A stretch of DNA of 64,000 nt from Schmidtea polychroa (Eukaryota): positions 7,132,001 through 7,196,000 of the forward strand of contig CM097885.1 in the NCBI GenBank assembly GCA_044892525.1, in the 5' to 3' direction. The position numbers and the translations under genes are program-made. The notes beneath the pieces are model-generated. The model searched no databases. It saw nothing but the letters and a program-made list of their open reading frames with translations, and had not been told where the DNA came from. Each line of letters begins with the position of its first letter. Positions within the stretch are counted from its first letter, which is position 1. Below are positions 32,379 through 62,970 of this stretch, in pieces.

Positions 32379-35300
32379 TGTTGGGCTAAATTTCAGAGTG
32401 GAGAAAACTGGAGCGAATAGAAAAGTAAACCTCGAATAATAAATAAGATAAAAATATAAAAATCTCACTAGTAAATAGGAAGGAACGATAAAAAATCAAT
32501 AAGAGAATAAGAATAGGTAAAACAAACTGAATAAAACCCAATAAATCCCTTAAGATTTAGAAATAAAACGAGTTAAAACACACAACGGATAAAATAGAAA
32601 TAGAATAAGTAAAAAAGTGACAACAAATAAACGAGAAATTTAAGAAATAAATAAAAAATAAACCATTTTAAGTCTAATTAAAACAAAAAATAATATTACA
32701 ATAAAATAACAATAAGTCCGCAGAAAAATAGAAGAGAAAATAATAAAAATAAGAAAAAATAAATAAAATAATAATAAGAATAAGCCAAGCCATTAAAAAA
32801 ATTTAATATACGATGATAAAAACATAAAAATAATAATAAAGAGTAAAAATACAAACGGGTCGCGTCCTGATTGGACAGAAAATAATATATAAAGAGCGAC
32901 AAAAATCTGTAGAGTATCATTCTAACCCGAAACTCTACAGGTAAAAGTTTATTTAAAATATTATCATCATTCTAACCCGAAACTCTACAGGACTTCAGGA
33001 CCACTTAGAACTTACTAGAACTCGTTTACGAAGCAATCCTACAAAACCACTTACAGCCGATAAGCCATTTTAGACTACTGGTTAAGAGCCTACGGAAAGT
33101 ACCGAGAACTTAGACGACTTTATTATTCTATTCGATCCAGTTTTAAACTCAAAGGTATACATTCGATTGATATTATGAATAGTTATTTGCTGTAAAAATG
33201 TTGAAAATAATGAAAAGTAGAATAAATTTTATTCAATAAATTCAATTTGAAATGAACAGCAGCCTTTTTCTTCATGGTACCGGCCACTGTACTATTTGGG
33301 ACCTTCAGGCATGATGCGGCAGAGCGAAAATACGTTGTGAAAGGGTTTGCGAGTATGCGTTGCGACGGAGTAAGATATCAGTCGATTTTCGAGGTTGAAG
33401 AAGATTTGAGGAAATTGTCCAGTACGGAGGGACATGCATCTGAATGGCTCGGAAGACATCATGCTTGGAACCCAGATGGTGGGGTCGCCGGGTAAATCTG
33501 ATTTATTCATTTTATTTGTTTTACAAAATTTTTCCATTAATGTCGGAGTTGATTTTGAATTGCTTGAGGAGAGGAGTTGATTGTCTCCCATGACGGTGCA
33601 AGGACGGCGGCAGAAATGAGTGCCGTTCTTGGGTGGGTCATGAGAGGTGAGGAAACTCCGTGAGTCGAAGTATAGCTGAAGAGTGAAATTTCCTTCATCG
33701 AGTGCGATCGACCACCGCTATCGTCGAAAATACACTTCTTAAAAGAGTAGTCGCGAAGATGAAATCATGAGAAACTCCAGGAAATTGTCGAATCAACGTC
33801 TTTTAACATTACATCCAGTCGCCATCAATCGCATTGGAAAGTTAGAGTCTATGTCGTATATCCCTCGGGAAATTGACACGAGAATATCTGGTGATTGGGG
33901 AGCTATAGCTGCGTAAAAAATCCAATGTTGTTCGCAGAGAATGTCATAGAGCCCGAGATCTTCTAGAATCCACATCGCCAGGACATTTACGACGAAACCC
34001 ATAGTCAGTGTACTTTTGAGTTAGATTGTTGGTTATACGGCCACTGATAAGCCTAGATTTTCTGAGAATAAAACAAACAAATCACGAGAAATTATCGGAA
34101 TATTTACGATCGATGCTAGAGAAACCGCAGTCGAATTTATCGGAAACTGTCAAACTAATTTCAGACAGATTATTATTCACCGGATTGTATGACTGAGGAA
34201 AATCCGCCGAAGAGAGGGAGCGATAATCGTCTCTGCCATAGGTTTAGTGAATGCGTTGATAGAGAGATGTCTAAGAGTTGATAACGACTAGAGTAAATCA
34301 TCAGTTCTGACCCGCTAGTGAATTGTCGCGTAATGATTGGGTGGATACTTCTAATCAATCTCCCAGACAACTGAATCTTGATAATCCGCCTCATTGACAT
34401 ACTACCTGGAAATTCTTTCTCAGTAGACGACAAATTGTTCTGAGTCCTAACATGTTCTGTGACATAATCGTGACGTAACAACGAGGAAGCTAATCGAGAA
34501 AACGATACTGTGTGCACAGGCGAAAGAAAGAGATCACGTGCGTAAGGCAGACACCCACTCTTAAACTACCATTCGAAGCAAACACGTCACCAAAACCGAT
34601 TCATAAGCTAGGGACAACTAACATTACTTTAGCATGCATTGTCACATGTTGAATTACATGCCACATGTAAACGAAAGACGATCTTTTAACACAACTACAT
34701 ATTGCGTAACGTCGTCATGACAACCTCACGGCAAAAATTTAAATAAAATCAAACCATCATAAACTAAACTAAAGGTGAACCAAAGATGTTCTGCTGTTAA
34801 TTTTTTTTCTTTTTCTATTTTATTTTTCTCTACTTGAACTACTTTAGTATAACATAACGAGGTCCATTGGATGTCGAATTTTTCTTTTATAATACGACTC
34901 GGTTTAGTTGTGTAGAACGTAGTAATGAGGAGTAAAATCGCAAACATCAGATAATGATAAATAAAATAAAGGGGTTAGTATTGTCAGCACTAGACTGATC
35001 AAGTGCGAAAAGGGGAATAGTCAAACTCATAACACGTACCGATTGTAAAATGATGACAAATAAATTATGTCTAGAATTTTCGTTTTCTTCTCGTTAGGTG
35101 TTGATGGTTGAGGGGATGAATTTGAATGCTTGAAATTGGATGAATGGGGGCACCGACTGATAATTTGGGTGTTGGAATCACCACTGAATGGTTTGATTGC
35201 GAAAATGGTGAACCTCGTATGTAAAATAGGAACAAAATCCTAGCCAATAAATTTTGTAAAATTGATAATAAAAAATTCTGTAAACTCTTTAGATGAATAC

Positions 35301-36579
35301 CTCTACCAGCTCTGGAAAAAATCTTCGCCCATGTCTCTCCTGCGCCGATAAAAACGCAGATATCGCGCAGCTCCACCTATATATCGGGGCATTGAAAAAG
35401 AGAATTGATCTCTACGAAGGCACGTGGTTCTCCCCGCCACAAATGAAAGAGGAACGCAAGAAAATTCTCCGATTAGAGCATTGCAGGGACAGCCTGCTGG
35501 AGGAAAGCCGTTGCCAGCGGCTCACGATCAAAGCACAATCGGAAGCCCTCCATAAAGTATATACGGAGGCAGAATTGGCCAAACGGGTCCGAGAATTTCC
35601 CGTCATCGAGAAAACCAATGTCTTCCCCCTCACCATCAGGCCTCCCAATCAACTTCAACAAGCTGCCAAGGGCATGGTACCTATCTGCCGCCCGTCCCGG
35701 CTCCAACCTTATCGAGTCATCAACCCTTGGTCGGTGGACCTACCGATCCCATCTTGGCTCCAATTTTGGTAGCACCAATCGGCACCGCGAACATAGAAAA
35801 CCCTCCGTCTACTCGCAAACGGAAACGGCCAACTCGAGCCGAGAAGAATAAAAAACGCCGAGATGCGATGGCCGCACTCGAAGCGTCACTATCGGTAGCC
35901 CAATCCACCATAAAAGAAATCTCTTCCAGCCATTCAATTCCAACGAAGGAAATTTTCCGTGTAATTCCCGCAGAGGGCATCAAATACGTCTCTAACCAAC
36001 GATTGCCGGTCGACATCGACGAGATGCTTGCTGATGGAGAGTCCTTTGACTGACAGATTTCCATTGCCTTGATTCTGCAAGATTCGGAAGCGGACTTGAG
36101 TATTTGTGAATATTGAACATTTATTTTTGTGACAGCCCCTTTTTCCTTGTTATAAATGTAATTATTGTTGTGGATGTAATATAATTTTTATTGTCTCTCG
36201 GTGATTGTTTTTGGCATGCATGATATGGGATTAAAAGTGAACAATAGGACGGTATCAGATATAGGTAGCACTACAGAGTCGTCCCCTTGGACCAGGGAAG
36301 GACCGAATGATGTGTAGAGGAATGGGTAAGACCTTCTACGGCGCCATGGAACCCGAACCGAGACAGGGTTAGGAGTAGTCTTAAGGCAGAGGCTCACCTG
36401 CTAACCTTTTCCGACCCGTGTGAGCAGCACCAACGTGGAACATCACCACGGGCTCATACGTGGGAATATGCATTTGATCATCTGGTGTATGTATGGGAAG
36501 TGCCTGAGCGGAACGATGACGCCTTGTATGAGTGAAGGTTGCGCGTGCGTAATTTTTCTCTTCCCCACATATGCCAACA
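32379..36579 (+). repeat. 5' LTR (4201 bp)
   Basis: Direct repeat of 58769-62970; about 8 substitutions and one 1-nt indel noticed by eye. Confidence 0.97.
35293..36053 (+). pseudogene. LTR-encoded ORF, frameshifted copy (159 aa + 108 aa)
   Basis: One C fewer in the C-run at ~35625 than in the 3' LTR copy, which reads as a single 253-aa ORF. Confidence 0.65.
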
Positions 36580-61700: not shown

Positions 61701-62970
61701 TCTGGAAAAAATCTTCGCCCATGTCTCTCCTGCGCCGATAAAAACGCAGATATCGCGCAGCTCCACCTATATATCGGGGCATTGAAAAAGAGAATTGATC
61801 TCTACGAAGGCACGTGGTTCTCCCCGCCACAAATGAAAGAGGAACGCAAGAAAATTCTCCGATTAGAGCATTGCAGGGACAGCCTGCTGGGCGAAAGCCG
61901 TTGCCAGCGGCTCACGATCAAAGCACAATCGGAAGCCCTCCATAAAGTATATACGGAGGCAGAATTGGCCAAACGGGTCCGAGAATTTCCCGTCATCGAG
62001 AAAACCAATGTCTTCCCCCCTCACCATCAGGCCTCCCAATCAACTTCAACAAGCTGCCAAGGGCATGGTACCTATCTGCCGCCCGTCCCGGCTCCAACCT
62101 TATCGAGTCATCAACCCTTGGTCGGTGGACCTACCGATCCCATCTTGGCTCCAATTTTGGTAGCACCAATCGGCACCGCGAACATAGAAAACCCTCCGTC
62201 TACTCGCAAACGGAAACGGCCAACTCGAGCCGAGAAGAATAAAAAACGCCGAGATGCGATGGCCGCACTCGAAGCGTCACTATCGGTAGCCCAATCCACC
62301 ATAAAAGAAATCTCTTCCAGCCATTCAATTCCAACGAAGGAAATTTTCCGTGTAATTCCCGCAGAGGGCATCAAATACGTCTCTAACCAACGATTGCCGG
62401 TCGACATCGACGAGATGCTTGCTGATGGGGAGTCCTTTGACTGACAGATTTCCATTGCCTTGATTCTGCAAGATTCGGAAGCGGACTTGAGTATTTGTGA
62501 ATATTGAACATTTATTTTTGTGACAGCCCCTTTTTCCTTGTTATAAATGTAATTATTGTTGTGGATGTAATATAATTTTTATTGTCTCTCGGTGATTGTT
62601 TTTGGCATGCATGATATGGGATTAAAAGTGAACAATAGGACGGTATCAGATATAGGTAGCACTACAGAGTCGTCCCCTTGGACCAGGGAAGGACCGAATG
62701 ATGTGTAGAGGAATGGGTAAGACCTTCTACGGCGCCATGGAACCCGAACCGAGACAGGGTTAGGAGTAGTCTTAAGGCAGAGGCTCACCTGCTAACCTTT
62801 TCCGACCCGTGTGAGCAGCACCAACGTGGAACATCACCACGGGCTCATACGTGGGAATATGCATTTGATCATCTGGTGTATGTATGGGAAGTGCCTGAGC
62901 GGAACGATGACGCCTTGTATGAGTGAAGGTTGCGCGTGCGTAATTTTTCTCTTCCCCACATATGCCAACA
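58769..62970 (+). repeat. 3' LTR (4202 bp)
   Basis: Direct repeat of the 5' LTR; ends CCAACA followed by TSD CTAC. Confidence 0.97.
61683..62444 (+). CDS. LTR-encoded 253-aa protein (CxxC, coiled coil, Pro-rich, basic NLS-like tract)
   Basis: Uninterrupted ORF, GC-richer than its flanks; RKRKRPTRAEKNKKRR. Confidence 0.6.
   Translation: MNTSTSSGKNLRPCLSCADKNADIAQLHLYIGALKKRIDLYEGTWFSPPQMKEERKKILRLEHCRDSLLGESRCQRLTIKAQSEALHKVYTEAELAKRVREFPVIEKTNVFPPHHQASQSTSTSCQGHGTYLPPVPAPTLSSHQPLVGGPTDPILAPILVAPIGTANIENPPSTRKRKRPTRAEKNKKRRDAMAALEASLSVAQSTIKEISSSHSIPTKEIFRVIPAEGIKYVSNQRLPVDIDEMLADGESFD

Follow-up and report, generated by a model that had tools for sequence, protein, structure and literature searches.

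A young, coding-defective copy of a giant Burro-like retroelement in Schmidtea polychroa, with accessory genes under purifying selection close to that of pol

The stretch of DNA analysed here, referred to as the window, comprises 64,000 nucleotides of Schmidtea polychroa (assembly GCA_044892525.1, contig CM097885.1, positions 7,132,001 to 7,196,000 of the forward strand), and harbors a 30.6-kb retroelement (positions 32379..62970) whose two long terminal repeats (LTRs) enclose an internal region of 22 kb. The features of the element are collected in Table 1. Comparison of both ends by blastn and a direct-repeat scan shows that the LTR pair is 99.79% identical, with 8 mismatches and one gap across 4202 columns, and the G+C content amounts to 37-42% in the interior of the element, as compared to ~26-29% in the flanks. 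A search of the same genome with the flanks yielded two paralogous sites that are free of the element (C1:6541151-6542883 and C1:6510515-6512245), each with a single copy of the target and 96-99% identity, and at both of them the alignments of the upstream and downstream flanks overlap by exactly 4 bases. Hence, the insertion, its ends and its 4-bp target-site duplication (TSD) are real. An earlier, sequence-only reading of this DNA had described near-identical 4.2-kb LTRs, an intact TSD and a giant (>30 kb), recently active gypsy element carrying an envelope gene. The LTRs and the TSD are corroborated by the alignment, by CTAC on both sides and by the two empty sites, and the element is a young Ty3/gypsy-type insertion with an env gene. 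The complement of the 18-mer that resembles a primer-binding site (PBS) has CCA at its end, as in the 3' end of a tRNA.

Reading frames were called under the standard code, and domains were assigned by Pfam unless stated otherwise. The largest open reading frame (ORF), ORF1, would without the lesions described below run from 39438 to 53674, that is 4,745 codons from stop to stop, with the first ATG of the gag frame at 39798, 120 codons in. Its order is Gag, three candidate ubiquitin-like domains (Ubl1 to Ubl3), a Bcl-2-like segment, a signal peptide, an envelope glycoprotein (env) with its transmembrane segment, protease (PR), reverse transcriptase (RT), RNase H (RH) and integrase (IN), two ankyrin clusters and a C-terminal membrane module. 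Direct LTRs with TG..CA-type ends, a short TSD, a zinc-knuckle Gag and PR-RT-RNase H-IN are all present, and the assignment to Ty3/gypsy (Metaviridae) is based on this domain order and on the Pfam families RT_RNaseH_2 and Integrase_H2C2. The gag and pol proposed earlier are recovered, from Retrotrans_gag and the three CCHC knuckles to RVP, RVT_1, RNase H and integrase with their DTG and YIDD motifs, and so is the envelope glycoprotein, which matches Monjiviricetes_fusion (PF24664) with an E value of 7e-72 and 242.8 bits against a cutoff of 27. This match is directly preceded by the signal-like stretch and has the transmembrane segment at its C-terminal side; a phmmer search of env against the PDB sequences gave chance rows only. 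Both ankyrin clusters also stand, with generic ankyrin families and nothing specifically IkB-like among the Pfam matches. A weak Spuma_A9PTase-like match (E 0.05) is observed after the RVP domain.

Concerning the ORFs that lie apart from ORF1, the first one encodes a RING protein, matched by zf-C3HC4_3 at 2.6e-8. In the PDB, 10 of its 13 matches are RINGs of IAP proteins (cIAP1, cIAP2, XIAP, ML-IAP), with cIAP1 as the best (2.6e-9), so the IAP-type gene of the sequence-only reading is upheld as regards its RING; the domain that marks the BIR-containing IAP family, BIR, was found by Pfam in none of the scanned ORFs. At the DNA level this ORF has 40 matches with 95-100% identity, nearly all of the same length. 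The TRAF-like ORF is, as claimed, a full TRAF with RING, zinc fingers, coiled coil and MATH: Pfam reports MATH_2 at 1e-23 and zf-C3HC4, the best solved relative is TRAF3 (1e-26, residues 243-453), followed by TRAF2, TRAF1 and TRAF5, and residues 27-157 match the RING-zinc-finger part of TRAF6 at 3e-15. The last ORF has two hydrophobic segments, and neither the coiled-coil ORFs CC1 and CC2 nor the 119-aa ORF could be assigned to a Pfam family.

We consider, at a probability of roughly 85%, that the element belongs, as a single young and coding-defective copy, to the published Burro (GYPSM1) group, to which it was matched by description. According to the Burro section of the review by Arkhipova & Yushenova 2019 (PMC6431247), which cites Jurka 2007 and Grohme et al. 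2018 for these elements, Burro1/GYPSM1 of Schmidtea mediterranea is longer than 30 kb, has multi-kb LTRs and is present in thousands of copies; its ORF1 of 4,873 aa starts with Gag and three CCHC knuckles, its motifs comprise MATH_TRAF_C, RING/"BIR", Smc-like, ankyrin, Bcl-2-like, SUMO-like and dUTPase-like ones as well as tandem repeats, and its env, which matches mononegavirus glycoproteins, lies in frame between Bcl-2 and PR. The element in the window is likewise longer than 30 kb and high-copy, with 4.2-kb LTRs, a Gag with three CCHC knuckles, coiled-coil regions and tandem repeats; it also presents Ubl, Bcl-2-like and env parts in frame ahead of PR-RT-RH-IN, as well as ankyrin, TRAF/MATH and RING. 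The same section puts forward the hypothesis that Burro elements are integrated proviruses that meddle with apoptosis and ubiquitination, so that the family, the domain list, the in-frame env and the idea of a provirus tinkering with its host are already published (PMC6431247), and the remark of the sequence-only reading that giant planarian elements of this size are not new is correct (PMC6431247). In the passages of another study that deal with it, BURRO1 is called highly abundant and active, and its RNA is described as enriched in the intestine, derepressed after smedwi-2 RNAi and controlled by PIWI-interacting RNAs (PMC8532177).

Two differences weigh against this identification. The TRAF of the window is a separate ORF downstream of ORF1 and no MATH is detected by Pfam within ORF1, which is where the review puts the MATH_TRAF_C of Burro1, and the dUTPase-like motif that published Burro has between PR and RT was not seen among Pfam matches with E up to 5. 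The first of these may point to a different Burro family or variant, and not away from the group. The element also differs from the published text in lacking, by Pfam, the "BIR", and from the published ORF1 in being damaged. As a separate observation, the C-terminal membrane module of ORF1, composed of a signal-like segment, a Cys-containing stretch of ~240 aa, a transmembrane segment and a basic tail, was not found mentioned in the Burro section of PMC6431247. An earlier selection analysis of the Burro accessory genes was not found in the open-access literature, where PMC6431247 and PMC8532177 were the only relevant papers. What is new here is the purifying selection on the accessory genes, the mosaic structure of the 3' end and the metagenome relatives with an env-PR-RT-IN fusion, all of which are described below.

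To begin with copy numbers, which are lower bounds, a first look at the genome gave at least 998 candidates for the RT region, 40 of which were scored (97-100% identity), and other parts of the element gave at least 592, at least 390 and at least 138. The 3' region was sampled in 30 rows including the window, with 91-100% identity and some duplicates, and dN/dS, the ratio of nonsynonymous to synonymous divergence, was computed pairwise by the Nei-Gojobori method (NG86) for the window versus other copies; for TRAF, CC1 and the small acidic ORF this was done with 9 selected copies, so that with the window 10 of the 30 rows were used, and for the ORF1 C-terminus, Ubl3 and pol in all rows versus the window. 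The positions and the order of the accessory genes do not vary among the 30 sampled 3' regions. In 26 of the 30 rows the TRAF frame is open, no row has an indel in it, and its ATG at 54292 is conserved in 30/30; CC1 is intact in 25/30, the 119-aa ORF in 29/30, and the last 487 codons of ORF1 are open in 24/30. The corresponding dN/dS values are 0.09-0.29 for TRAF (one pair reaches 0.56, on 10 differences), 0.04-0.10 for CC1, 0-0.23 for the small acidic ORF on no more than 6 differences, 0.05-0.18 for the last 487 codons of ORF1, which include the C-terminal membrane module, and 0.07-0.32 for the Ubl3 region. For comparison, pol as a control yields 0.03-0.07 (non-duplicate pairs), whereas TRAF and CC1 read in the wrong frame yield 0.69-2.41 (3 pairs). 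Hence, TRAF, CC1, the small ORF, the Ubl3 region and the C-terminus of ORF1 are under purifying selection close to that of pol. The differences between copies are mostly synonymous, and the copies stem from lineages that were replicating under selection; constant positions and purifying selection together show that the accessory genes belong to the element. The sequence-only reading would have been undermined by accessory ORFs absent or decaying neutrally in other copies, and they do neither. It should be noted, as a point against this reading of the counts, that the sampled copies are the best-scoring ones and contain duplicates (L019/L020, L023/L024, L036-L040), so the row counts are not independent.

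In the same alignment, neighboring genes differ in their divergence. Between the window and L034/L036, CC1 is only 79% identical, with a saturated dS of ~2, a dN of 0.097 and no indels, whereas the adjacent TRAF is 98.5% identical with a dS of 0.04. The start and length of CC2 vary by copy group (233-254 aa), and in 12 of the 30 rows the 224-aa last ORF is replaced by a different one of 202-211 aa. The 3' accessory genes are thus a recombining mosaic, whose modules have been exchanged between lineages, most simply, we would suggest, through recombination during reverse transcription.

Table 1. Features of the element and its insertion site (window coordinates)
Feature	Position	Strand	Remarks
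TSD CTAC, 4 bp	left 32375..32378, right 62971-62974		
5' LTR	32379..36579	+	4201 bp; termini TGT..ACA
PBS-like 18-mer	36587..36604	+	starts with TGG, 7 nt past the 5' LTR; read from sequence
RING ORF, 159 aa	37043..37522	+	coiled-coil N-terminus; C-terminal IAP-type RING at ~37370-37495
Internal tandem repeats	38118..38411		periods 34/39/73
ORF1, first part	39438..42746	+	1102 codons: Gag, acidic/helical linker, Ubl1, Ubl2; stop at 42744-42746
Retrotrans_gag	39951-40232	+	Pfam
Three CCHC knuckles	40551-40703	+	motif
Ubl1	41784-42023	+	weaker evidence
Ubl2	42306-42575	+	weaker evidence
ORF1, continuation in the same frame	42747..43826	+	359 codons; carries Ubl3
Ubl3	43254-43472	+	fold prediction
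ORF1, remainder	43760..53674	+	3304 aa
Bcl-2-like segment	44273-44470	+	GGW at 44462-44470
Signal-peptide-like stretch	from 44609	+	residue 284 of the 3304-codon frame
Env ectodomain and transmembrane segment	up to ~46393	+	transmembrane residues 860-878
PR (RVP)	46994-47269	+	DTG at 47036
RT (RVT_1)	47933-48409	+	YIDD at 48254
RNase H	48596-48985	+	
IN	49307-49879	+	
Ankyrin clusters	50744-50968 and 51743-52000	+	
C-terminal membrane module of ORF1	52673-53533	+	hydrophobic residues 2972-2990 and 3232-3258
Small acidic ORF, 119 aa	53843..54202	+	no family
TRAF-like ORF, 462 aa	54292..55680	+	RING, TRAF zinc fingers, coiled coil, MATH
Coiled-coil ORF CC1, 345 aa	55898..56935	+	no family
Coiled-coil ORF CC2	57111..57746	+	no family; 233-254 aa in other copies
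Last ORF, small membrane protein	57836..58510	+	two hydrophobic segments; 224 aa in most relatives
3' LTR	58769..62970	+	4202 bp

The copy in the window is damaged. A piece of 1351 bp across the gag-to-env junction was compared with 16 other copies, 14 of them non-duplicate, and two lesions appear: ORF1 has an in-frame stop at 42744-42746, and near 43777 its frame is shifted by two extra bases. Both are present in the window and in two 100%-identical copies only and are absent from 14/14 others, 12 of which are open across the whole piece. The form without the two extra bases also occurs in contigs of two public runs; no GT..AG joint was found across 38769-58768 in contigs of four public runs, which are not established as RNA. 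In addition, the in-frame stop at 58142-58144 interrupts the last ORF and is found in 3 of the 29 rows with letters there, namely the window and its two duplicates, and a 43-bp deletion after 57730, which alters the end of CC2, is private to the window (the letters are present in 28 of the 29 other rows). The copy is therefore coding-defective and unable to produce the full polyprotein, and any mobility would depend on proteins from other copies. The sequence-only reading had overlooked both interruptions of ORF1 and the damage to two ORFs in the 3' region. The sequence-only reading had called the element possibly infectious, which does not apply to this copy because it is not coding-intact. 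Programmed readthrough or frameshifting at the gag-pol junction was considered for the two ORF1 interruptions and rejected, since neither the stop nor the frame change is seen outside this insertion and its duplicates.

The two 100%-identical copies are located on C1, near 6.9 Mb, and on contig C144, and their flanks are identical as well. Hence, they are not separate transpositions, and the three copies represent one insertion, later duplicated or assembled twice; given the shared flanks, the identity of the three does not speak for a very recent transposition. The duplicate on C144 (L013) shows a 15-bp in-frame deletion of its own in CC1 and the window has its private deletion in CC2, and therefore either the duplicates have begun to diverge or the assembly differs.

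The three ubiquitin-like domains proposed by the sequence-only reading fare unequally. For Ubl3, a model folded from a four-row alignment presents a beta-grasp with a pLDDT of 89.1 and has 468 matches in the PDB at E<=0.001, with SUMO1, ISG15, ubiquitin and NEDD8 at the top (TM-scores of 0.8-0.87, E value 4e-6), and this predicted structure confirms Ubl3 as a ubiquitin fold. Ubl1 and Ubl2 are suggested by weaker evidence: both align with Ubl3, a profile of the three hits ubiquitin-like domains in the PDB at E 0.004-0.03 with the unrelated Arc repressor as its first row, Ubl2 matches PI3K_rbd (E 0.0055), and Atlas searches with the Ubl segments gave ubiquitin/Rad60-SLD clusters, to be taken as leads only. 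The C-terminal di-glycine of conjugatable ubiquitin and SUMO modifiers follows none of the three segments as read from the sequence.

The Bcl-2-like segment of the sequence-only reading is a probable but not proven member of its family, with moderate support. The Pfam Bcl-2 score is 14.3 bits in the window, below the cutoff of 31.4, and 20.1 bits in the relative P0005. Four distant metagenome relatives carry the equivalent segment directly before env, with the GGW of the BH2-like motif invariant across the 5 sequences, and a profile of these five rows retrieves from the PDB Bcl-xL (E 0.0018), A1 (0.016) and BHRF1 (0.089). When the structural model is compared by VIA-align, KsBcl-2 of the herpesvirus KSHV (Kaposi's sarcoma-associated herpesvirus) is first, and 15 of 50 rows, BHRF1 included, belong to the Bcl-2 family. 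Several points weigh against the call: the model has a low confidence (pLDDT 50), the top Foldseek rows are almost all Bcl-2 family members but at E values of 0.2-0.9, and the Z of 8.7 obtained for KsBcl-2 over 100 residues (root-mean-square deviation 3.1) is within the chance range for helical bundles and not decisive.

In order to find relatives of the env-pol polyprotein, residues 1-1010 of the 3304-codon frame were used in HMMER, which returned 972 proteins at E<=1e-3, 47 of them at E<=1e-30. When the Bcl-2-like region and env were searched in a word-indexed protein library nothing was retrieved, a limit of the index, since HMMER gave these 972 relatives. The best ten are mostly ENA metagenome records. 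Among 18 matches scanned with Pfam, 4 combine env-PR-RT-RH-IN in a single protein and 3 have gag or a CCHC knuckle ahead of env; matches of ~650 aa are stand-alone Monjiviricetes glycoproteins, with PF24664 at E 1e-171 to 1e-212. One cluster of relatives contains a polyprotein of 4,844 aa that combines env with several PR-like domains, ankyrin, RT, RNase H and IN. As side observations, P0002, P0003, P0004, P0015 and P0151 have two to four tandem aspartyl-protease-like domains between env and RT, and the 2627-aa env-PR-RT-RH-IN polyprotein P0006 is recorded as hypothetical and assigned to a Flavobacteriaceae metagenome-assembled genome, a label that most likely reflects eukaryotic or viral contamination of the bin.

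The surroundings of the element are rich in other repeats. Tandem or dispersed repeats are found at 30000-30413 and 30906-31569, and the element is nested among these and others (also 62971-64000); the flanking kilobases have 4625 (upstream) and 3125 (downstream) first-look candidates in the genome. On C1, at ~6.37-7.22 Mb, the flanks have several paralogous copies with 96-100% identity, which suggests a local segmental duplication. Further upstream, at window positions 14242-27299, there is a Maverick/Polinton-type element, whose ORFs comprise a double jelly-roll capsid (E 6e-26), an rve integrase with a phospholipase A2-like domain, an A32-like packaging ATPase and, on the minus strand, a protein-primed type B DNA polymerase of 1474 aa.

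Regarding the way an intact element would work, we envisage that reverse transcription is primed by a tRNA from the PBS-like site at 36587-36604 and that ORF1 is made as a single polyprotein threaded through the membrane of the endoplasmic reticulum (ER). The signal peptide and transmembrane segment of env would direct its ectodomain to the ER lumen and leave the parts on the Gag side and on the Pol side cytosolic, and cleavage by host signal peptidase and by the PR of the element might then release the products. Flavivirus-type polyproteins are membrane-threaded and are cut by host and viral proteases, and the internal signal peptide and transmembrane segment of ORF1 would produce, by analogy only, the same alternation of cytosolic and luminal parts. 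Cellular and viral Bcl-2 proteins are tail-anchored; here the Bcl-2-like domain, which ends ~45 residues before the signal peptide, could retain that peptide as its C-terminal tail anchor. Two further small membrane proteins may come from the last ORF and from the signal and transmembrane pair that closes ORF1. The RING, TRAF, Bcl-2-like, ankyrin and Ubl parts would act on ubiquitination, TRAF signalling or cell death of the host, with the possible outcome that producing cells survive.

Three kinds of known systems resemble parts of this picture. Errantiviruses (gypsy, Metaviridae) carry a captured env of the baculovirus F type as a separate third ORF; they are alike in the Ty3/gypsy-type pol order and in having a fusion glycoprotein from another virus group, and unlike in that the env of the window is of the Monjiviricetes type and lies in frame between gag and pol. 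Large DNA viruses carry captured host-control genes, among them KsBcl-2, BHRF1, the Bcl-2-like proteins of poxviruses and African swine fever virus, baculovirus IAPs and poxvirus ankyrin proteins, and the same kinds of captured cellular domains occur in the window element, a comparison of working only; the putative host-control set described here differs in that it is borne by a reverse-transcribing element with 22 kb of internal sequence and is without BIR. Anakin, a BEL-Pao retrotransposon of Aedes described with a chuvirus-derived glycoprotein, is also an LTR retroelement with a captured Jingchuvirales/Monjiviricetes-type glycoprotein, but belongs to another superfamily and another host phylum and is described without the accessory set for cell death and ubiquitin (PMC7642597).

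A bolder reading, to which we give somewhat less than even odds, is that Burro lineages are living complex metaviruses. Their host-control module would be made up of a TRAF-like E3, an IAP-type RING E3, ankyrin and Ubl parts and a Bcl-2-like domain left tail-anchored once the env signal peptide is cleaved, constrained about as strongly as pol and reshuffled in cassettes by recombination, and Gag, Env and Pol would all derive from one frame, whose polyprotein is threaded through the ER. This concerns the lineages; for the copy in the window to be itself intact, currently active and possibly infectious is highly improbable, even if its LTR identity (99.79%), its recognisable env (E 7e-72) and the expression of BURRO1, called highly abundant and active (PMC8532177), would fit, since ORF1 is broken twice, the last ORF has a stop and CC2 a 43-bp deletion, lesions that most other copies do not have, and its near-identical copies represent a single duplicated insertion and not three transpositions. 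Even less credible is an origin of the composite by misassembly or by the nesting of unrelated elements, such as an endogenous glycoprotein gene of an RNA virus inside a gypsy element. The genome is indeed repeat-rich, and there may be an assembly duplicate or a haplotig among the near-identical copies, but env is continuous in frame with gag and pol across the junction in 12 of the 14 other copies, unrelated metagenome contigs contain the same env-PR-RT-RH-IN fusion, and the env fusion has been published independently (PMC6431247); of all alternatives we rate this one lowest.

A different question is what the accessory genes are for. They might be passive fragments of host genes, or nested insertions, that do nothing for the element: TRAF, RING, Bcl-2 and ankyrin all belong to cellular types of domain, and LTR elements can transduce host sequence. 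Cargo of this kind is very hard to reconcile with positions and order that are constant in 30 sampled 3' regions, a TRAF without indels in 30 rows, dN/dS values of 0.04-0.3 against 0.7-2.4 out of frame, and a GGW that is invariant in the Bcl-2-like segments of four distant metagenome relatives, directly before env. More serious, if still rather unlikely, is the possibility that these genes serve the life cycle of the element itself, through assembly, ubiquitin-dependent budding, trafficking, turnover or targeting of integration, instead of blocking the host. Purifying selection shows that there is a function and not which one, the Ubl domains sit inside the Gag-side polyprotein and end without di-glycine, the coiled-coil ORFs belong to no family, and RING and TRAF proteins, as E3 ligases, have a wide range of roles. 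What argues for host control is that a Bcl-2-like segment, an IAP-type RING and a TRAF make up a set for cell death and TNF-receptor signalling that mirrors the captures of large DNA viruses, and that the top VIA-align match is a herpesvirus Bcl-2.

As regards its meaning, the element type is remarkable, being a retrovirus-like element of more than 30 kb that carries an RNA-virus glycoprotein within its polyprotein together with genes of the cell-death and ubiquitin pathways. It has been in print since 2007-2019, and the window adds a copy and not a discovery. A point left open in the Burro section of the 2019 review (PMC6431247) is answered, in that the accessory genes are not decaying cargo and are constrained nearly as strongly as pol. 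Finally, the membrane-topology model, if correct, would offer an account of why env lies in frame between gag and pol.

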